A DNA stretch of 64,000 bases, from positions 91,099-155,098 of IMG/VR virus record IMGVR_UViG_3300025012_000031. One strand, given 5' to 3'. This document shows, in pieces, positions 54-34,825 of this stretch. The position numbers and the translations under genes were made by a program. Source of the DNA: a virus. Position 1 is the first letter of the stretch, and the number at the start of each line of letters is the position of its first letter. Below the pieces are notes generated by a model. The model ran no database searches. It had not been told where the DNA came from and saw nothing but the letters and a program-made list of their open reading frames with translations.

Positions 54-127
54 TGGAGGGAAGTATGGGGTTCGAACCCATGCTCGCCGGGTCACGGCCG
101 ACGCGACTACCATTATCTTAACGACCC
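54..127 (-). tRNA. tRNA-His(GTG), atypical
   Basis: Cloverleaf with anticodon arm GTCGG-CCGTGAC-CCGGC, T arm ATGGG-TTCGAAC-CCCAT and encoded CCA; two acceptor-stem mismatches, C33, U73. Confidence 0.75.
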
Positions 128-528: not shown

Positions 529-620
529 TGGTGGTTCTAGGACGGAATTGAACCTCTTGCCCATACGGGGAATGTTCTACAGACATCCGGCAGCACCAGC
601 TACCCTTACTTGCAAGAACC
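529..620 (-). tRNA. non-canonical tRNA-Tyr(GTA)-like RNA
   Basis: Acceptor GGTTCT/AGAACC + ACCA; anticodon arm GGATGT-CTGTAGA-ACATTC; 6-bp D stem GGTAGC-TGGT-GCTGCC; T loop TTCAATT. Confidence 0.65.
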
Positions 621-801: not shown

Positions 802-946
802 TGGTGGCCCGCGTTGGAATCGAACCAACATTCCCGGAGACAGTGTCCTCAGAGTCGCGACTAAGAGTTATGATATACCGACATACGTTTCGACATACCA
901 CAAGAAACACCATCCACATGGTCTTAACCGATTAGATGAGCAGGCC
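802..946 (-). ncRNA. 145-nt tRNA-like RNA with anticodon arm replaced by a long structured insert
   Basis: Acceptor GGCCTGC/GCGGGCC-ACCA, D arm, T arm GTTGG-TTCGATT-CCAAC; about 90 nt of helices in between. Confidence 0.8.
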
Positions 947-959
947 GTGCTTTAATTTT

Positions 960-1045
960 TGGTGTACGTAACAGGAGTCGAACCTGTTCAGCATTAAGCA
1001 ACTGGGTTACAGCCAGTCCCGGCTCTCCAACTCCGGCGTACGCAC
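960..1045 (-). tRNA. tRNA-Tyr(GTA)
   Basis: ACTGG-CTGTAAC-CCAGT anticodon arm, long variable arm, CCA encoded. Confidence 0.95.
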
Positions 1046-1187: not shown

Positions 1188-1263
1188 TGGTCGAGTCTCG
1201 GGGTTTCGATCCCCGCTCTACTGCTTTTCAGACAGTTGCTTTCACCAGATTAGCTTAGACCCG
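1188..1263 (-). tRNA. tRNA-Phe(GAA)
   Basis: ACTGT-CTGAAAA-GCAGT anticodon arm; T loop ATCGAAA; CCA encoded. Confidence 0.93.
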
Positions 1264-1575: not shown

Positions 1576-1599
1576 TCGTTTATTCCTTTTCTTTATGAG

Positions 1600-1672
1600 C
1601 GAGAATGACGGGATTCGAACCCGCGCTACAGGAGTGACAATCCTGCGTGCTAACCGCTAACACTACATCCCC
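1600..1672 (-). tRNA. tRNA-Asp(GTC), no encoded CCA
   Basis: CAGGA-TTGTCAC-TCCTG anticodon arm, G73 discriminator. Confidence 0.95.
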
Positions 1673-1844: not shown

Positions 1845-1921
1845 TGGTCTATGTGGAGAGATTTGAACTCCCGTCCTCCTGCGTCCAAGGCAGGCCGTCT
1901 ACCAGGCTGACTTACACATAG
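1845..1921 (-). tRNA. tRNA-Pro(TGG)
   Basis: CCTGC-CTTGGAC-GCAGG anticodon arm; C1-G72, A73, CCA. Confidence 0.93.
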
Positions 1922-1935
1922 ATGATGAACATTAG

Positions 1936-2008
1936 CGAGCGCGACGGGATTCGAACCCGCAACAGTCTGATAGACAGTCAGACATCATTACCATTTGAAA
2001 CCGTGCCC
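1936..2008 (-). tRNA. tRNA-Asp(GTC) second copy, no encoded CCA
   Basis: TCTGA-CTGTCTA-TCAGA anticodon arm; T arm GCGGG-TTCGAAT-CCCGT; G73. Confidence 0.88.
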
Positions 2009-2042: not shown

Positions 2043-2071
2043 ATTATACAAAATCTTCCTCACTTTGTCAA
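2043..2071 (-). promoter_or_regulatory. sigma70-type promoter inside the tRNA cluster
   Basis: TTGACA-17 nt-TATAAT perfect consensus. Confidence 0.9.
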
Positions 2072-2111: not shown

Positions 2112-2186
2112 TGGTCGGGATGACAGGATTCGAACCTGCATGGCCTCCGCCCCAAACGGAGTGACTGACCGTTAGCCTACATCCCG
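2112..2186 (-). tRNA. tRNA-Pro(TGG) second copy
   Basis: CTCCG-TTTGGGG-CGGAG anticodon arm; CGGGATG/CATCCCG-ACCA. Confidence 0.95.
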
Positions 2187-2199
2187 ATATTTTAAAACT

Positions 2200-2230
2200 A
2201 AAAAAGGAGCCTACCGATAAGATAGGCTCC
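2200..2230 (-). terminator. intrinsic terminator (candidate attenuator) directly upstream of the tRNA cluster
   Basis: GGAGCCTATC-TTATC-GGTAGGCTCC followed by TTTTTT. Confidence 0.9.
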
Positions 2231-2262
2231 CTTGAAATGGGGAAGGACTCTATACTTAAAGG

Positions 2263-2355
2263 TTAATCGGTGCTTACACCATAATCCACAGGCGACATCG
2301 GATAATCAGAGTCGCTAAAAGCAAAATCAAAATGTGGGGATGAATGTGTAAACAT
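2263..2355 (-). CDS. 30-aa putative attenuator leader peptide MFTHSSPHFDFAFSDSDYPMSPVDYGVSTD
   Basis: GAGGT SD 6 nt before ATG; lies between a late promoter and the terminator; strongly biased composition. Confidence 0.75.
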   Translation of the reverse strand: MFTHSSPHFDFAFSDSDYPMSPVDYGVSTD

Positions 2356-2389
2356 GATAAGACCTCTTGTAGTTTTTGTCCGTTTAAGT

Positions 2390-2397
2390 TATTTATA
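2390..2397 (-). promoter_or_regulatory. T4-type late promoter
   Basis: TATAAATA; a gp55 homolog is encoded in the window. Confidence 0.75.
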
Positions 2398-2412: not shown

Positions 2413-2523
2413 TTAGCCAATTTCGTTGTAGGCAATGCCCTGTTCATCGAGGAAATCTTCGATAGCTTGCTTCTGTTCATCGTTCTCATCATCCAATTCG
2501 ATCTCGTAAATTACAATTCCCAT
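2413..2523 (-). CDS. 36-aa acidic peptide
   Basis: AAAGGAGG SD; MGIVIYEIELDDENDEQKQAIEDFLDEQGIAYNEIG. Confidence 0.7.
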   Translation of the reverse strand: MGIVIYEIELDDENDEQKQAIEDFLDEQGIAYNEIG

Positions 2524-2549
2524 ATAGTATGTCCTCCTTTCGTTTATTT

Positions 2550-3002
2550 TTATTCCTGTAAAAGTCTGCGGTGAAGAATCTTGAATTCTTCGTCTTTGTT
2601 TAATCCTTCGAGTGCCGCCAACACTCTTTCTTCTAAACCATAACCACTTCTTGTATAAAATATGACAGCGGCTAAGGTGTTAACTTCTTTACTATTCTTG
2701 ATGATGTTGGTGGTGATATTCTTTATCGTTTCACCACTACAACAGAAATCATCGATGATGATGTACCGCCCCCGGAGTCGACCAACATCACCCCCCGAAT
2801 GACTTGATTTTTTGTCTTCATCTTTACGAATGACATAGATGTTTTTATCCAAGAGGTGTGCCAAAACAAATCCTAATGCCATACCAGAAACACCCCGACA
2901 CACAATAGTGTCAAATTTAATTCCGCTGAGTAATTTCTCACAATCTATAATAGTCTTCTTCCGTTGACTTGGATCAATTGCCTCTTTGAAATAACTTGCC
3001 AT
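2550..3002 (-). CDS. type I phosphoribosyltransferase-family protein
   Basis: PRPP-binding motif IIIDDFCCSGETI; IRK loop. Confidence 0.85.
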   Translation of the reverse strand: MASYFKEAIDPSQRKKTIIDCEKLLSGIKFDTIVCRGVSGMALGFVLAHLLDKNIYVIRKDEDKKSSHSGGDVGRLRGRYIIIDDFCCSGETIKNITTNIIKNSKEVNTLAAVIFYTRSGYGLEERVLAALEGLNKDEEFKILHRRLLQE

Positions 3003-3553: not shown

Positions 3554-4633
3554 TTATGCGTCAGAATCCTTTATCAGATAGCGATTAGATATCGCCTTGA
3601 AGCTTAATATCTTACCATAATAATTATTGAATGATTTATGAAAACCGCGGATAACGATACCCTCCCGCTCGTTTGTCGTTCCTTCATATTTCGATTCGGC
3701 CAATTTAAGAAGGTCATCCATACTATATTCGAATGAATCACCGATTTTAAACAGCGGTACGCGCTTCAAATTGAGGGCATTACAGACAACACCCATATCG
3801 TGGTAATCGTAATACCGCTTCTGGGTTTTATCAAAGACATTGAAGACAAACATATCGATGGCTTTCAACCCAAGACGATTTTTCTGTATGCCCGGGCCGC
3901 AGATTTCCCCCTGGATGACAAGATGACTAAATTCTTTATCTAACATGATTTCATCAAGACGATATTTTTTAGCAATATTCCAATAAACATTACCGCCTTC
4001 TTTAATCATCAAATTCCTGGAACAAGCAAAGAACCCATCTTCATCAATACCATAGGTTCCTGACGTACCATCACACTTGACGGTAATCTCATACGGCTTC
4101 CCGGTGATTCGTTCAATAAGACTTGGGTCAGATTGAACTCGTGTCTCGTCGGTCCTTGGGAGAATATGATCGGGGAATGATCCCTTGGCGTCACCGTTCT
4201 CAAATGTGATCGGTGGTTCATACTTATTTATCCCGAGAGCATCGGTGAAGTCAATTCCTTCCATGAGGTTGAGATACTCGCATGTGCCATCATTCTCGGA
4301 CCTGGCCATACAGAAATGTCCGTTGTCATTCTCCATCAACCATCCATTGTCTTCAAGGATTTCTCGCACAACCGGAAATGGGATGACATAACCCTGGGAG
4401 ATCTGCCCGCGGAGTTTCATTGTGCGGATGCGACCCTTACAATTTTCAAGCTCAGGAAACCGATCAAGTGGAAGTACAGAGTCAATCTCGCAATAGATGA
4501 CTAGATCACCTTCCCGATGATATCCCTTTCCAACAACACAATCCCAACCAAGAACCTTTGCAACCTCTATACGATCGGCGTTAGGAATTGGGCGTAAACT
4601 TTCAATCCTTTGAAGCGAGGCTAACTTTCTCAT
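3554..4633 (-). CDS. RNA ligase, Rnl2-like/DRB0094 family
   Basis: MRKLAS...PIPNADRIE N-terminal domain, KCDGTS motif I, QGEICGPGIQKN, EGIV, SFKAIS; start placed after AAGGAG. Confidence 0.93.
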   Translation of the reverse strand: MRKLASLQRIESLRPIPNADRIEVAKVLGWDCVVGKGYHREGDLVIYCEIDSVLPLDRFPELENCKGRIRTMKLRGQISQGYVIPFPVVREILEDNGWLMENDNGHFCMARSENDGTCEYLNLMEGIDFTDALGINKYEPPITFENGDAKGSFPDHILPRTDETRVQSDPSLIERITGKPYEITVKCDGTSGTYGIDEDGFFACSRNLMIKEGGNVYWNIAKKYRLDEIMLDKEFSHLVIQGEICGPGIQKNRLGLKAIDMFVFNVFDKTQKRYYDYHDMGVVCNALNLKRVPLFKIGDSFEYSMDDLLKLAESKYEGTTNEREGIVIRGFHKSFNNYYGKILSFKAISNRYLIKDSDA

Positions 4634-4850
4634 TCGTTTCTCCTTTTCTGTATTCAAACAAGTCATCATGTTTGCCCTGTAATGAAAACAGCGCATCATC
4701 TCGTTGTTCTATCGTTTTATAACTTTTCCACTTTTTCCATTCACCCCATGATTTAAACACCGGGCGAGTCATCTTCCACTCGATTGTGAATGGTTTCTTT
4801 ATCTTTGCCCGACTTTTACGGTGTTTTGGAATCTCTTCATCATTCATCAC
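4602..4850 (-). CDS. hypothetical protein
   Basis: ORF with GAGG SD in operon. Confidence 0.65.
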   Translation of the reverse strand: MMNDEEIPKHRKSRAKIKKPFTIEWKMTRPVFKSWGEWKKWKSYKTIEQRDDALFSLQGKHDDLFEYRKGETNEKVSLASKD

Positions 4851-7915: not shown

Positions 7916-9037
7916 TTACCAGCGACGTTTCATATCGCCAGAAGTCTTGTTCCATGTTTTTCGTTCAGTGCCGAAAACATCATTTTTGTAGAAGAAGAAT
8001 GTTAATCCAATACTACCTCCGATCGAAACGATTGCTGCCAAAATAAGGACCCATGTTGGTGGTTCAATGTTATCTTTTAGATATTCATAATCCTCCATGT
8101 TCATTTTTTTGTAGTGCTTTTCGATGTTCGCTTTCATTACGGCTGGTGCTAATTGAACGGTATCTTCATTCAGCTCTTTGAACTTTTCGAGATTGGCTCG
8201 GAGATTTGCCTTAAGATGTTCATTATCCCATGACATAATCCTAACCCAGTCGATCTTCGGATAATTTGGAACACCGAAAACAACAACCACATCATTCTTC
8301 TTGCCGCCCACCCATTCTTTTTCGAGTGCGTGGATGTACGCTGAATTGTTTGACTTGACGAAAATCGTTGACAGATTGACCTTTTTCTTCGGACCTAACT
8401 TCTTGTTGATGTCGTTGATTGCAGAGTTCCATTCTTTAAAATCTTTTAGTGGAACACCCATCGAAACAACACTGTCTTTTCGATAATAGTCATAAATTTT
8501 ATCAGGATATGGCGGGATCAGCCCAGCAAATTCTTCGGTACTAAACTCTGAATCATTAAACAGTGAACCGGATGATGCCCTGATGTAATTTGTATATGTT
8601 CGAGACGAGGAGAACGGATCACCAATCCTTGCAGCCGTCCATCGGGGTGGTTCTTTTACTCCTCTTTCATCAATTCGGTTAATCCTTACACCGATTCCGG
8701 TTGATGCGTACACATTCCAATCGAAGTCATTGTCATGATCATAACAGGTTTGGCAGGTTGTAATTGAACCGCCTTTCGAGTCGGTCGGTATCGTGACACA
8801 GTTACATTGGTATGAATGTTCACATGAAACCGTTTCTCGCGTTTTCTCGACAACCTCATCATTCCAAACTTCCGTATCAGTCATCGCCGAGGAACGACCC
8901 ATGGCAACAATGCCGACACAAACAACAGTGATGATGACGAGCTGTAGGCCGAGTTCTTTCCAACAAATCTTGTGGGGCCAAATCATTTTTGTAATCCAGG
9001 CCCAGATGATTGGAAACAAGAGGATCAGATAAATCAT
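7916..9037 (-). CDS. conserved phage membrane protein
   Basis: Two N-terminal and one C-terminal TM segments; CEHSYQCNC; WVGGKKND. Confidence 0.8.
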   Translation of the reverse strand: MIYLILLFPIIWAWITKMIWPHKICWKELGLQLVIITVVCVGIVAMGRSSAMTDTEVWNDEVVEKTRETVSCEHSYQCNCVTIPTDSKGGSITTCQTCYDHDNDFDWNVYASTGIGVRINRIDERGVKEPPRWTAARIGDPFSSSRTYTNYIRASSGSLFNDSEFSTEEFAGLIPPYPDKIYDYYRKDSVVSMGVPLKDFKEWNSAINDINKKLGPKKKVNLSTIFVKSNNSAYIHALEKEWVGGKKNDVVVVFGVPNYPKIDWVRIMSWDNEHLKANLRANLEKFKELNEDTVQLAPAVMKANIEKHYKKMNMEDYEYLKDNIEPPTWVLILAAIVSIGGSIGLTFFFYKNDVFGTERKTWNKTSGDMKRRW

Positions 9038-9342
9038 TGATGTTTTCTCCTAACTTGATTTATGTTCCGTTAATTGTCAGAGTAAAATATCAAAGAATGC
9101 GGTGAATGTAAATAGAAAAATGCACCATGATGTAATTTATGTTATCGAAGATAAATGGAGCTATCATCTTGATATCCGCACGTCGGACACGCCATGATAC
9201 ACACCCTCCCAATATAAATTTCGGTGTCACCGTTTGAACAATAAGGGTCTTTGCATGTAGAGAATTCTTCAAGTTCAATGTTGCAGTTTGGGCACGTCAT
9301 TTCTTTTCCTTTATAATGTTGGGCTTGCTCGGAAATGTTGTC

Positions 9343-9630
9343 TTAATTGACCTTTAATTGGGGGATGGCATCCCCCAATTGTTTGCGGGCCGCATTTACA
9401 AAATCGTAGCTGGCACCCTTGCCCGCTAGAACGGCTTTACACAATGTATTGATGTTATTACGAATCATATCTTGTGTAGCAATAACAAGATACTGTTTGT
9501 GGTCTTCTTTCTCCTGGAGAGCTCTGTTATACTCAATCTCGTTCATTCGCTTTTGGTGCTGAAGTTGTTCTTCACGTTCAGCAATCTCAAGACGGCGACA
9601 CTCTTTTTCATAATTTTCTACTTCCATCAT
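9343..9630 (-). CDS. hypothetical coiled-coil protein
   Basis: ORF with AAAGG SD. Confidence 0.65.
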   Translation of the reverse strand: MMEVENYEKECRRLEIAEREEQLQHQKRMNEIEYNRALQEKEDHKQYLVIATQDMIRNNINTLCKAVLAGKGASYDFVNAARKQLGDAIPQLKVN

Positions 9631-9667
9631 TATAACCTTTCGTTTGAGCGAGCAAGCCCATTACATC

Positions 9668-10159
9668 TTACAGTTGACCGAAGGCAGCAGCAATTGCCCA
9701 ACAATCATTTTCTTTATCAAGCAGGTCCCTGAGTTTATGTAGGCGACCACAAAATTCTGAAGTCGTGAGAACTGTTTCGTTCGTCTTCCTCTTCCCCATT
9801 GAGTGACAAAAGACGGCGTTCCCTGAAGCGCGTAGTGCATTACGGAATCCTTCGTTCTGAAGAAACATGGAAAGATATGCGCTGTCGAGGAGACGTTGAT
9901 ACCCATCGCTATCACGGTGATATTTGACACCGTCCCAATAGAGAGTTTGTGTTCTGTACCAATTCTTTTTCTTCCCACGAAACTTCGCAGCCTTTCCGAC
10001 GAGCTTACAGACTTCCTTTTGGATTTCCGGATTCTCAAACTTAAAACTTTGTAACAGCCCCTCCATCCCCGCGCATTCAACGCCACGAAAGACAAACGGA
10101 TGAACCGCGAAGTTACTCAACTTATTTGATGGGAACGAACCACCCGATGATATGTCCAT
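9668..10159 (-). CDS. NADAR-family protein (T4 gp30.3-like)
   Basis: LSNFA.HPFV..GV.C..MEG.LQ..K; QTLYW.G; QN.GFR.AL; H.MG...TVLT..EF. Confidence 0.85.
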   Translation of the reverse strand: MDISSGGSFPSNKLSNFAVHPFVFRGVECAGMEGLLQSFKFENPEIQKEVCKLVGKAAKFRGKKKNWYRTQTLYWDGVKYHRDSDGYQRLLDSAYLSMFLQNEGFRNALRASGNAVFCHSMGKRKTNETVLTTSEFCGRLHKLRDLLDKENDCWAIAAAFGQL

Positions 10160-10820: not shown

Positions 10821-11120
10821 TTAATGATCCTCGATTGGATTTTCCTTCTCGTATTTCTTGTATAGGTCGGCTACATAATTTGGGTTCTCACAATGATTGT
10901 ATGCATACCCAAATCCAAAACCAAAGAACCTGATGACGCCCGCACAGATATAATCCCAACTTTTTCTGTTAGAGTAAACGATCGCGGTCTGAAAGAAGAT
11001 CGCCTTTTGAATTTTACTCCGAACAATAAGTGGCCAATATATTTCAACCGAATGCAGCTTGCAGAAAATTTGTACTCTATCAGAGCAGATGTAACAGTGT
11101 TTAAACCTTTTGAGTATCAT
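10821..11120 (-). CDS. hypothetical protein
   Basis: Operon-packed ORF with SD. Confidence 0.6.
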   Translation of the reverse strand: MILKRFKHCYICSDRVQIFCKLHSVEIYWPLIVRSKIQKAIFFQTAIVYSNRKSWDYICAGVIRFFGFGFGYAYNHCENPNYVADLYKKYEKENPIEDH

Positions 11121-11131
11121 GTTAGTTCCTT

Positions 11132-11401
11132 TCAGATTGGTTTAGAGACATCTTTATATTGATAAAACCCCTGCTTGTATCTTTGGTAGTACATTGTATT
11201 GTCACCAAGTAGGTCCATATCAATTCCTCTACGAATCTCATCAAAGAACGAGTATCCGCATACACATGTGTATTTGTTTTTATGAACTAAAATCAATCCA
11301 TCCTTTGTCTTTCTTACATAGGGATAAGGATGTTCCACCAAAGGAACATGATCTTCTTTTCCACAGTATGGGCAAATTGGTTTGTTCATTATATAGTCCA
11401 C
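11132..11401 (-). CDS. zinc-ribbon hypothetical protein
   Basis: CPYCG...CVCG. Confidence 0.6.
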   Translation of the reverse strand: MDYIMNKPICPYCGKEDHVPLVEHPYPYVRKTKDGLILVHKNKYTCVCGYSFFDEIRRGIDMDLLGDNTMYYQRYKQGFYQYKDVSKPI

Positions 11402-11640
11402 GTGATGCAGTCAACATTATTTTTCTTATAGAAAGAGATGATAACTTCCTTGGCAATGGGGTGCATTTTGTAGGCGGTCCCTTCTATTTCGCTAAGGTCC
11501 CAACAAATTGTTCCATCACCATCACTCGGTAAGAAATCACTTTCGTTAGCGATAAATTCATGAAGCTCGTTCCAGTCATGACCCAATTCTTGACCGTGCT
11601 CTAAGAGTTCGCTCCAATCAGCAAGGTTAACTGTTTTCAT
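11389..11640 (-). CDS. hypothetical protein
   Basis: Operon-packed ORF. Confidence 0.65.
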   Translation of the reverse strand: MKTVNLADWSELLEHGQELGHDWNELHEFIANESDFLPSDGDGTICWDLSEIEGTAYKMHPIAKEVIISFYKKNNVDCITWTI

Positions 11641-23623: not shown

Positions 23624-24814
23624 TTATGCAGATAGTGCCAATTGAAAAGTGTCTCTCAGCATCACCATGTAATTACGATCCTCGCACATGCTTTTCCCGG
23701 GGGAGTCAGAAAGTTTGGCCACGGGTTTTCCATCGCAGTTGACCATCTTCATTACGATAGATAGAGCTTTGCTTGAATCGAAGTCATTGGTCAGATTGGT
23801 GCCGATTCCGAAGACGATGGTTGGAAAGGCCAGACCGAGATGTTGATTATATTCGCCACAGCTAAACATAATCGACGATGCCGTCTCAACATCAAGTCCA
23901 TCACTGAAAATGAATGTCTTTGTGGAGGGATCAACACCAAGTTCAGCAAGACGATTAATCAGTGTCATATACCAAATCATGGTGTTTCCAGAATCATGGC
24001 GGAAGCCGCGGTATCGCTTGGCGTTTTCAACAGAGAGATCGCGACAAAATGCATCAATACCAACGATGTCTGTTAGAGCAACGGCGAGCTTATCGCCATA
24101 CTCATCGTACCAAACATTGAGGGCATTCTTCTGAAAGTCGATGAGTTTGGGAGAAAGAGCCTGATATGCCTGGAACCACTCGTGGGCTTGGGTACCTTTA
24201 CAGGGAATGCCGAGTTTCCAGGCGAGGTAGACGTTAGAGGTGCCACCAAAATTTTTCAGATTGTCTTTGAGATACGAAACGACCTCGTACTGCCAACGAC
24301 GTGAGCGGCGACGGCGGGTTCCCATCTCAATGATCGGCATACCAACCTCATTAGCATCGTTGATCTTTTCACGGAGGTTAAACATTGCACTGGTGTAATC
24401 GGGGTGGGGGTCCTCATTGCGGAAGTAAACCTCGTTAACGATGGCAAGAACCGGGACCTCAAAGAGGATCGTATTGACCCAATGACCTCGGATGCGGATA
24501 ACGATGTCATTCCAATCCCAGGAGATGAAAACCGTCTTCGGATCAAGCTGGAAGTCTTTGAGATAGTCAAGAAAGTCTTCAGCGAAGATATCCAAAGATC
24601 GAAGGTACTCAATTTCTTCGGACTTGAATTTCAATGCACAATACCATCTGATCTGATTCTCGATCAGCTCGATATATTTCGTCAGATTTACTCCTTCCGA
24701 CCGGCACTTAAATGCATAATCAACAATCGGATTTTCTGTCTGATGAAATGCTGCTTGCATCTGTGTGAGTTTGTATAAGTCATTATCTAACAACGAAGGT
24801 TCTAACATAAACAT
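23624..24814 (-). CDS. pncB: nicotinate phosphoribosyltransferase
   Basis: DLYKL.Q.QA, EMGTRRR, GTSNV, GTQAHEW, RHDSG, FSDGL, FGIGT, KLSDSPGK. Confidence 0.96.
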   Translation of the reverse strand: MFMLEPSLLDNDLYKLTQMQAAFHQTENPIVDYAFKCRSEGVNLTKYIELIENQIRWYCALKFKSEEIEYLRSLDIFAEDFLDYLKDFQLDPKTVFISWDWNDIVIRIRGHWVNTILFEVPVLAIVNEVYFRNEDPHPDYTSAMFNLREKINDANEVGMPIIEMGTRRRRSRRWQYEVVSYLKDNLKNFGGTSNVYLAWKLGIPCKGTQAHEWFQAYQALSPKLIDFQKNALNVWYDEYGDKLAVALTDIVGIDAFCRDLSVENAKRYRGFRHDSGNTMIWYMTLINRLAELGVDPSTKTFIFSDGLDVETASSIMFSCGEYNQHLGLAFPTIVFGIGTNLTNDFDSSKALSIVMKMVNCDGKPVAKLSDSPGKSMCEDRNYMVMLRDTFQLALSA

Positions 24815-33435: not shown

Positions 33436-34695
33436 TTACGAAATGACCGCTACAAGGCGGCTCTTGAAATCCTTCTCTGCGTGTGCAAAGGCCTGGACAT
33501 ATTGATTGAATGCCGCTTCTCGTGGATTCTTTGCATTGGTGACATCGATCACTGCATGTTTTGCTACCGCGGTTGCCATCCTCCACCGATGATCTTGCTC
33601 GGAGGTTAACGGATGATCACACATACAACATGCATGATATTCTGGCCATTGCTCGGAGCGGATTGCTTTAACGAGGGCCATTACTTTCCGACCTTTCATC
33701 TCTGCAATGTAATGCATCTGCATATGATATCTTGCAACCGTGAGAACGAGTTTATTTGTGTGGCGATCAAATGTCTGATCCTTCAACCACTCTTCGGCGA
33801 TGTCTTTACTCCTGAGCTCATGACCATAATGATGTGGGAGAATTTCGGGTTTGGTTGTTGCTTTCCCAAAGTCATGACACATGCAGGCGATGAAGCAAGA
33901 GAAGCTGTACTCATTTTCCTGGCATCGGTCAATCACTTCCATCGTATGTTCAAATGCCGTGTTACCGTGATGCCACTGAATCGGACCAGCGGTGACATAA
34001 CGAAGATCATCGAGCGGTTTGATGATGTACTTAAGAGCATCAATTTCCGCAAGTACTTTGAAGAAAGAAGATGCCGGGAACTTATTCTGGGCTTTCCACA
34101 ATTTCTCGAGCTCCAGAACAATTCTTTCCTTTGTAACAAATTGCAGCTTATGAGCGGCCGCCTTCATCAGAGACAATGTGTTGTCGTCAAAGGTGAATCC
34201 TAAACGTGCATGCAATCTTGCACCACGAAGGATGCGGACGGGGTCTTCAAGAAATGCCTTTTCAAAAACGGTCCTTAAGATGCCGGCCTTACAATCGGGA
34301 ATACCACCGAAGGGATCAACGAATGTTTCTGTTTGCATGTGCCAAGCAATCGAGTTGACTGTGAAGTCACGACGGCCGAGGTCTTCAATCAGAGGAACAC
34401 CGACGCGATCAACAACGAAGTCTCCATATCCATCACCGGTGGAACGCTCGGTGCGGGTCAGCGCAATCTCTGACTTGAAGTCGGACATAAACACCGGGAA
34501 ATCTTTACCAACCCTGGGCCATGCCGGAAACGCTTCCCTGAGTTGCTCTTCCGTTGCTTCAACTACGATGTCCATGTCATTGGGCATCAGGCCGATATGC
34601 TTGTCTCGGCAAAATCCACCAACGATGTATGTCATTGGATGAAGAGCGCCGAGCAAATGTTTTCTTCCATATATTTCTTCGGTCGTTACGTGCAT
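33436..34695 (-). CDS. cca: CCA-adding tRNA nucleotidyltransferase with HD domain
   Basis: VGGFCRD, DMD, GKDFPVF, RTERSTGDGYGDF, EDLGRRDFTVN, EDPVRILR; H...HDFGK. Confidence 0.93.
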   Translation of the reverse strand: MHVTTEEIYGRKHLLGALHPMTYIVGGFCRDKHIGLMPNDMDIVVEATEEQLREAFPAWPRVGKDFPVFMSDFKSEIALTRTERSTGDGYGDFVVDRVGVPLIEDLGRRDFTVNSIAWHMQTETFVDPFGGIPDCKAGILRTVFEKAFLEDPVRILRGARLHARLGFTFDDNTLSLMKAAAHKLQFVTKERIVLELEKLWKAQNKFPASSFFKVLAEIDALKYIIKPLDDLRYVTAGPIQWHHGNTAFEHTMEVIDRCQENEYSFSCFIACMCHDFGKATTKPEILPHHYGHELRSKDIAEEWLKDQTFDRHTNKLVLTVARYHMQMHYIAEMKGRKVMALVKAIRSEQWPEYHACCMCDHPLTSEQDHRWRMATAVAKHAVIDVTNAKNPREAAFNQYVQAFAHAEKDFKSRLVAVIS

Positions 34696-34825
34696 TGTGT
34701 TTCCTTTCATTGTTGGGTAAATTATATATCATTACTTTTCATATGTAAATAGAAAAATACATCACTCCTATTATTTTCTTTTGATAAATAATCTAAATTT
34801 CTAATCACATTGGGAGTATACATAA

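Follow-up and report, generated by a model that had tools for sequence, protein, structure and literature searches.

Attenuators and the control of tRNA supply

Several leader-peptide attenuators of enterobacterial amino-acid operons respond to a single signal (trpL, hisL, leuL and pheL), and others are multivalent, such as thrL (Thr/Ile) and ilvL of the ilvGMEDA operon (Ile/Leu/Val). The pheM leader of E. coli pheST attenuates an aminoacyl-tRNA synthetase operon, and T-box riboswitches act by direct binding of a single uncharged tRNA. It has long been asked why phages have tRNA genes, and codon compensation has been set against the replacement of tRNAs destroyed by host defence. Phage tRNAs have been described as a counter-measure to host anticodon nucleases (PMC10264068); that study concerns tRNA sequence, its text contains neither the word "promoter" nor "late", and we found no expression switch in it. 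Functionally, the published system closest to the locus described here is the trn operon of Anabaena, a long array of 26 tRNA genes which is induced when translation is impaired and repressed by TrcR (PMC8421152, PMC10272220). Control is exerted there by a ribbon-helix-helix repressor, with no codon roster (PMC8421152, PMC10272220), and the words "attenuation" and "leader" are absent from the text of PMC8421152.

The locus analysed here, unit A, stands at the head of a phage tRNA array (array A) and, judging from the analogy of its parts, would work like the thrL and ilvL attenuators. It resembles them in having a short leader that would be translated, an intrinsic terminator before the first gene, a predicted antiterminator, weaker than the terminator, which a lagging ribosome would free, and a protector helix predicted for the untranslated RNA. 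Those attenuators control biosynthetic enzymes and contain tandem codon runs for one to three amino acids, whereas the phage units would control tRNA genes behind a late promoter and present dispersed codons for 7 to 20 amino acids; their roster (the amino acids of the downstream tRNAs) changes with array content, and the 20 amino acids can be shared out between two complementary units. Amino-acid-operon attenuators in the narrow sense precede biosynthetic, transport or synthetase genes and use tandem runs, but unit A has tRNAs downstream and seven amino acids dispersed; because of its different target, host and breadth and its evolving roster, we do not class it in that family. The pheM leader likewise tunes the supply of charged tRNA by attenuation, but for one amino acid and through a synthetase instead of tRNAs. 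In T-boxes the choice between terminator and antiterminator is also set by tRNA status, whereas here the signal would come from the many codons of an ORF; the T-box Rfam model (stem I specifier loop, antiterminator bulge) had no match to unit A up to E=10. The anticodon-nuclease study suggests a likely purpose, the replacement of depleted host tRNAs (PMC10264068). The preliminary description of this DNA knew of no described multi-codon attenuator of phage tRNA arrays, and in our coverage of the literature, mostly outside the subscription journals, no publication describing such control was found; the genome paper of phage RsoM2USA mentions neither attenuation, leader nor terminator (PMC8504454).

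Genomic setting and parts of the locus

The window, the whole stretch of 64,000 nucleotides that was analysed, covers positions 91099-155098 of IMG/VR record IMGVR_UViG_3300025012_000031, a 155-kb linear virus (41% GC, 65% complete according to CheckV) from groundwater/sediment metagenomes. The gene content is T4-like, with a gp23-family gene, UvsX, a DnaB-like helicase and SbcCD, and the genome has 23 copies of the late-promoter motif TATAAATA, many of them directly 5' of genes with a ribosome-binding site. The minus strand carries over 40 tRNA genes between 93.3 kb and 51.4 kb of the genome, with unit A at the head of this region; the phage has two tRNA arrays, each of them with a late promoter, a short ORF and a terminator at its head. 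Since the leader A region is identical in nine further assemblies or runs from the same site, an assembly error is excluded, although such copies are not independent as evidence of function. There were no sequence variants of the locus in the contigs compared and no close relatives of the phage in the collections searched; some related-looking loci turned out to be the same phage. None of the sequencing runs listed for it was of RNA.

The promoter, Shine-Dalgarno sequence, 30-aa ORF, terminator, tRNA-Pro and sigma70 site listed in the preliminary description were all recovered at their positions on the minus strand (Table 1). The antiterminator strand begins 4 nt 3' of the leader A stop codon, and the predicted terminator energy is -18 to -19.6 kcal/mol. 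The perfect sigma70 promoter bypasses unit A for all but one tRNA, as had been pointed out, and this counts against the attenuator; only the first tRNA-Pro(UGG) depends entirely on read-through. A sigma70 promoter is placed in the same way behind the terminator of leader B. Because these promoters would supply tRNAs early, the attenuator would act as a late top-up, with negative feedback. From the Ser codons of the leader, tRNA genes for Ser, and also for Thr, Val and Met, had been expected left of the window: those for Ser (UGA, CGA and GGA) and Met are indeed part of array A, and those for Thr and Val belong to the second array. Small ORFs are interspersed among the tRNA genes of 960-1672, and position 33 of the anticodon loop of tRNA-His is C instead of the usual U.

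Table 1. Coordinates of the leader units, of the tRNA genes around them and of leaders in related phages
Feature	Position	Strand	Basis or remark
Window coordinates
T4-type late promoter TATAAATA	2390..2397	-	sequence; putative function
5' leader with Shine-Dalgarno (2368-2362, 6 nt before ATG)	2362..2381	-	predicted fold
Leader ORF A (P0001), 30 codons	2263..2355	-	sequence
Small hairpin within ORF A	2292..2315	-	predicted fold
Antiterminator 5' strand	2243..2258	-	predicted; pairs with 2231-2218
Intrinsic terminator	2198..2233	-	stem 2231-2206, 13 pairs; U-tract 2205-2200
tRNA-Pro(UGG), array A gene 1	2112..2186	-	tRNA prediction
Perfect sigma70 promoter TTGACA-17-TATAAT	2043..2071	-	downstream of attenuator
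tRNA-Asp(GUC)	1935-2008	-	tRNA prediction
tRNA-Pro(UGG), second copy	1845-1921	-	tRNA prediction
tRNA-Asp(GUC), second copy	1599-1672	-	tRNA prediction
tRNA-Phe(GAA)	1188-1263	-	tRNA prediction
tRNA-Tyr(GUA)	960-1045	-	tRNA prediction
Degenerate second tRNA-Tyr(GUA)-like gene, odd D arm	529..620	-	read from sequence; missed by ARAGORN and Rfam
tRNA-His(GUG)	54..127	-	tRNA prediction
Genome coordinates
tRNA-Met(CAU)	~90980	-	array A, left of window
tRNA-Ser(UGA)	90053	-	array A, left of window
tRNA-Ser(CGA)	89277	-	array A, left of window
tRNA-Ser(GGA)	88322	-	past weak terminator and sigma70 promoter that follow Ser(CGA)
Abnormal-loop tRNA-like genes	86322-86167 and 82617-82540 (L001:15069-15224, 11442-11519)	-	
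Unit B: late promoter, 35-codon ORF, terminator, sigma70 promoter, tRNA-Glu	76778-76525	-	
Leader B ORF	76696-76589	-	
Cultured phages
KVP40 leader (AY283928)	178917-178804	-	layout
RsoM2USA leaders (MG752970)	87361-87248 and 112124-112047	-	layout
Metagenomic relatives
G001 leaders	11116-11283 and 24316-24381		layout
G003 leader	61069-60953		layout
G004 leader	167863-168015		layout
G006 leader	8939-9055		layout
G010 leader	9607-9750		layout

On the other side of the late promoter, a very acidic 36-aa ORF adjoins it upstream (window 2413-2523, minus), followed by a small phosphoribosyltransferase (2550-3002, minus). As no terminator was found between these genes (2413-3002) and leader A, earlier transcripts may enter the leader too. 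An RNA ligase lies just upstream of the tRNA region (3554-4699, minus) and a tRNA nucleotidyltransferase further away (33436-34710, minus); both are tRNA repair or maturation genes, which fits a context of tRNA defence. A divergent gp23-family gene is isolated within the tRNA region (L001:11596-12870, genome 82694-83968, minus), and likewise in the relative G001.

Codon content of leader A

Our recount confirmed the composition initially reported for leader A: 16 of its 30 residues are Phe, His, Pro, Asp or Tyr, Ser is present six times on five codons, and there is no Lys, Glu, Leu, Ile, Asn, Arg or Gln, nor any Cys or Trp. The six amino acids Pro, Asp, Phe, Tyr, His and Ser, those of the array A set, make up 22/29 residues (enrichment over background, p=8e-8), or 23/29 on-roster when Met is counted too (p=6e-8). 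Each of the nine anticodon types of array A finds its cognate codon in the leader, 21 of whose 29 codons are readable by array A tRNAs. Two Thr, two Val, one Ala and one Gly codon and two AGC codons are off-roster for leader A, the Thr and Val tRNAs being in the second array; their concentration in helices was not significant (p=0.14). Two features by which leader attenuators are recognized are present, a short ORF with Shine-Dalgarno sequence and start codon between the promoter and the first gene, and an enrichment of the leader in codons decoded via the products of the operon.

A pyrimidine-rich spacer could produce a Phe/Ser/Pro-rich ORF by chance, and pyrimidine-rich codons are indeed within the amino acid set. 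However, none of 20,000 stop-free dinucleotide shuffles of ORF A reached 22 such residues (mean 12), and none was devoid of the nine missing amino acids. ORF A also ranks first among the 1,095 short ORFs of the genome by its P/D/F/Y/H/S content, and not one of 29,819 windows of 29 aa in the long ORFs of the phage reaches 22 (maximum 17). With the complete lack of Leu and the replication in other phages with other amino-acid sets, described below, a chance origin is extremely improbable.

Leader B, a comparison within the genome

The second unit provides an internal comparison. Residues of the P/D/F/Y/H/S set amount to 22/29 in leader A versus 4/34 in leader B (Fisher p=3.6e-7); of all 38,760 six-residue sets, the one defined by the tRNAs separates the two leaders best. 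Leader B has no Phe, His or Tyr and contains all 13 non-Met amino acids of array B that were tested; its single Trp codon is matched by a tRNA-Trp at genome ~76225-76150, which ARAGORN had missed. At the codon level the match of leader B is partial, AGA, AGG, AAG, ATA, TTG and CTA being absent though those tRNAs are present.

The two units are also informative about another explanation, in which unit A acts as an independent small structured RNA made late, of the 6S or another type, and the ORF is incidental. The untranslated RNA of unit A is predicted to form one long hairpin (z=-4.3), noted already in the preliminary description, which hides the Shine-Dalgarno sequence, the start codon and the antiterminator strand; the unit has its own promoter and terminator and shares a few motifs with unit B. 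However, no Rfam family matched, the Rfam 6S model had no match to unit A up to E=10 (the apical stem is only about 10 bp), the nucleotide similarity between A and B is marginal (p=0.04) and the fold of leader B is ordinary (z=-1.05), and the reading of A and B as paralogous 6S-like RNAs was rejected. A pattern scan for the motifs shared by A and B gave two matches, neither of them near a tRNA, which resemble the antisense strand of a protein gene and were judged to be chance. A role as RNA alone also leaves unexplained why, in several phages whose splits differ, one frame matches the tRNAs that follow it. We therefore regard it as very unlikely, and take the long hairpin for the protector state of the untranslated leader in preference to a rival non-coding RNA.

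Leaders in other phages

Since the collections contain no close relative, the comparison was made with distant ones (32-45% protein identity) and with cultured phages, all of them hand-picked and not phylogenetically independent. Ten further leaders were found in eight other phages, namely five metagenomic relatives and the cultured KVP40, RsoM2USA and Atu_ph07. The layout of the unit is present in five of the seven tRNA-bearing metagenomic relatives and in three of ten cultured phages with tRNA clusters, RsoM2USA having two leaders. The script detected no leader in T5, XacN1, Aeh1, Felix O1, Xoo-sp15, S-CRM01, GAP32, G002 and G005; as it also missed the real leader Rso_c, these negatives are not proven absences. 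In the ten leaders the stop codon and the terminator are separated by 23-39 nt, a spacing that is not diagnostic, ordinary terminators here lying 20-35 nt behind stops. Rosters were taken from ARAGORN/Infernal output, without the Trp (G000, the studied phage) and Gln (G004) tRNAs found later, whose addition would only improve the match.

The composition of the leaders co-varies with tRNA content, within the genome as seen above and also across related and cultured phages, as the preliminary description had anticipated. In RsoM2USA the amino acids are split into P/C/E/Y/L/W/S/H/V and M/I/N/Q/K/R/F/A/V/P/D/T/G, differently from the studied phage, and the two leaders are on-roster for 21/24 and 34/36 residues (contrast p=2e-9). 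The KVP40 leader has 19 of the 20 residue types in 36 codons ahead of a complete array; among full-set leaders, residue diversity is significant solely in this phage (p=0.03). The second leader of G001 is rich in Leu, Tyr and His and precedes a Tyr/Leu/Pro/His array. The G004 leader lacks only Gly and Tyr, the tRNAs for both of which lie upstream of it, and the G010 leader lacks only Gly, whose tRNA is upstream, the tRNA for Tyr being downstream and Tyr in the leader. For the seven partial arrays, the true assignment of leaders to arrays is the best of 5,040 permutations. The exception is the leader G001a, which mismatches its detected array (26/54 on-roster, expected 0.55).

Conservation of the frame could be followed in the KVP40 family, eight phages with 75-99% DNA identity. 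Their ORF has 37-38 codons with the same stop and 17-20 residue types; the majority of the changes are non-synonymous, the only indel, of 3 nt, preserves the frame, and where the last sense codon differs, so does the terminator loop predicted to pair with it. Some records of this family annotate an antisense ORF at the leader, or nothing. A pattern of this kind agrees with selection for an open frame and a codon roster, and not for the peptide. It bears on the explanation that ORF A encodes a small protein made late for a function of its own, the terminator being an ordinary one which insulates the tRNA array. The good promoter, Shine-Dalgarno sequence and terminator would suit such a gene, and some assemblies annotate the 30-aa product as a gene; but it is a singleton in the protein collection and has no PHROG, the leaders at equivalent places share no sequence while their composition follows tRNA content, and the non-synonymous changes of the KVP40 family add to these points. 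A functional small protein is thus highly improbable.

RNA folding and a possible kinetic switch

The preliminary description had proposed that a strand behind the stop codon pairs with the 5' arm of the terminator. The pairing exists in a slightly different register: in the lowest-energy form 2258-2245 pairs with 2231-2218, at -10.0 kcal/mol versus -19.6 for the terminator. Compared with shuffles, its strength is borderline for unit A (p=0.06) and not significant for unit B (p=0.23). Because this strand pairs with both the 5' arm and the loop, it would occupy the bases on which the terminator nucleates. If the leader is untranslated, the 5' leader (2362-2381) is predicted to pair with 2263-2245 as a protector helix, with P(terminator)=1.0; this is not so in several relatives. 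The hairpin 2315-2292 is a possible RNA-polymerase pause signal, which would couple polymerase and ribosome.

At full-length equilibrium the terminator of leader A wins in every ribosome state (P about 0.98), so a switch must be kinetic. We modelled the nucleation step with the transcript cut 4 nt before the U-tract and the ribosome footprint masked, which approximates a kinetic process statically; in this model termination depends on ribosome position. For unit A the modelled terminator probability is 1.0 when no ribosome is present or when one stands at the stop, and 0.27-0.53 for stalls at codons 15-25; a stall at codon 5 gives 0.98, and read-through is then not favoured. For unit B it is 0.01-0.04 when stalled and 0.99 at the stop. 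By a fixed measure, a rise of at least 0.4 from stalled to stop, 9/12 leaders switch versus 2/54 ordinary terminators (p=3e-7), the controls being taken from behind ordinary genes in the same sequences, though one of them is the G004 leader's own. By this measure leader B goes from 0.12 to 0.88 and leader A from 0.50 to 0.99, which places A among the weaker modelled switches (0.49); Rso_b, Atu07 and G004a show no switch.

These results bear on a further alternative, a translated tRNA-roster sensor with another output, such as precursor processing or stability, exposure of the RNA to Rho, or the opposite polarity. The composition evidence is silent on the output, the antiterminator of leader A is weak and loses at equilibrium, and the model gives no switch for three of the leaders. 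Nevertheless, an intrinsic terminator lies just 3' of all 12 leaders, several antiterminators are strong (-22 to -30 kcal/mol in G001a, G001b and Rso_b) and include the last codons, and the modelled direction is that a stall gives read-through wherever a switch is seen. A different output is on balance unlikely.

Proposed mechanism

From the comparative evidence and the model we consider it likely that unit A is a ribosome-mediated transcription attenuator reading a tRNA roster, as the preliminary description proposed; that ORF A is a codon-sensing leader of some kind we hold with high confidence. Array A tRNAs are probably made late only when ribosomes read the leader codons slowly. Late RNA polymerase would start at TATAAATA, and a ribosome would translate the 30 codons, which list the downstream tRNAs for Pro, Asp, Phe, Tyr, His, Ser and Met. 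With these charged tRNAs plentiful, the ribosome would reach the stop and cover the strand just behind it, and the terminator would fold before tRNA-Pro. If any of them is short, whether cut by an anticodon nuclease, uncharged or scarce, the ribosome would lag, so that the leader acts as an OR-gate on tRNA supply; the freed strand would pair with the 5' arm and loop of the terminator and the polymerase would read into array A. Without a ribosome, the antiterminator strand would be taken up by the 5' end and the Shine-Dalgarno sequence, and the terminator would form. The second unit of the same build would control array B for other amino acids, and the sigma70 promoter behind each terminator would provide the early tRNA supply. 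With each amino acid represented by one to six scattered codons, the leader would be better suited to detecting a strong stall on any one tRNA, for instance after anticodon-nuclease cleavage, than to fine sensing of one amino acid; starvation or simple scarcity would have the same effect on the leader as nuclease cleavage.

Other RNAs of the tRNA region

The tRNA region contains other RNAs. A tRNA-like gene of 145 nt (window 802-946, minus) matches no Rfam family; its acceptor stem, T arm and CCA are intact, but the anticodon arm is replaced by two or three hairpins. Similar enlarged genes are present in G003 and G006, and as "pseudo" tRNAs heading the KVP40 array. Three tRNA-like genes between arrays A and B have abnormal or short anticodon loops of 5-6 nt, and are possibly decoys or nuclease-resistant forms. 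An intact-looking amber-suppressor tRNA (CUA) lies apart from the main arrays (L002:324-398, genome 51422-51496, minus), and such a tRNA is also found in G004 and RsoM2USA. A GOLLD RNA is inside the region (L002:10133-10550, minus; 146 bits, slightly below the gathering threshold of 150), and a c-di-GMP-I-type riboswitch aptamer (L002:7327-7401, minus; E=5.6e-9) is upstream of a 71-aa ORF. In the tRNA region of G006 (L059:4280-4700, about 224.3 kb), a late promoter is followed by ~300 nt of sequence, non-coding and apparently structured, and by a strong terminator; this element is not a roster leader.

Significance for large phages

It is fairly probable that roster attenuators of this kind are general in large phages of several lineages, and that the loss of any rostered tRNA, for example to a host anticodon nuclease, is sensed by ribosomes on the leader and leads to transcription of the matching array. 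Each leader would then spell the tRNAs of its array, evolve with the gain and loss of tRNA genes, and show which tRNAs the phage monitors. The correspondence between leader and array would also provide a sequence rule for annotating missed tRNAs, which led here to the Ser, Met and Trp genes. Since the element is present in the cultured KVP40, RsoM2USA and Atu_ph07, it can be tested at the bench. If the proposal is true, attenuation would extend to tRNA genes and to as many as 20 signals per leader, and the element could serve as a reporter for tRNA-targeting defences. A sensor of decoding speed ahead of the tRNA genes would bring the question of why phages carry them within reach of direct tests, as the attenuator would open under just those conditions for which the tRNAs exist.
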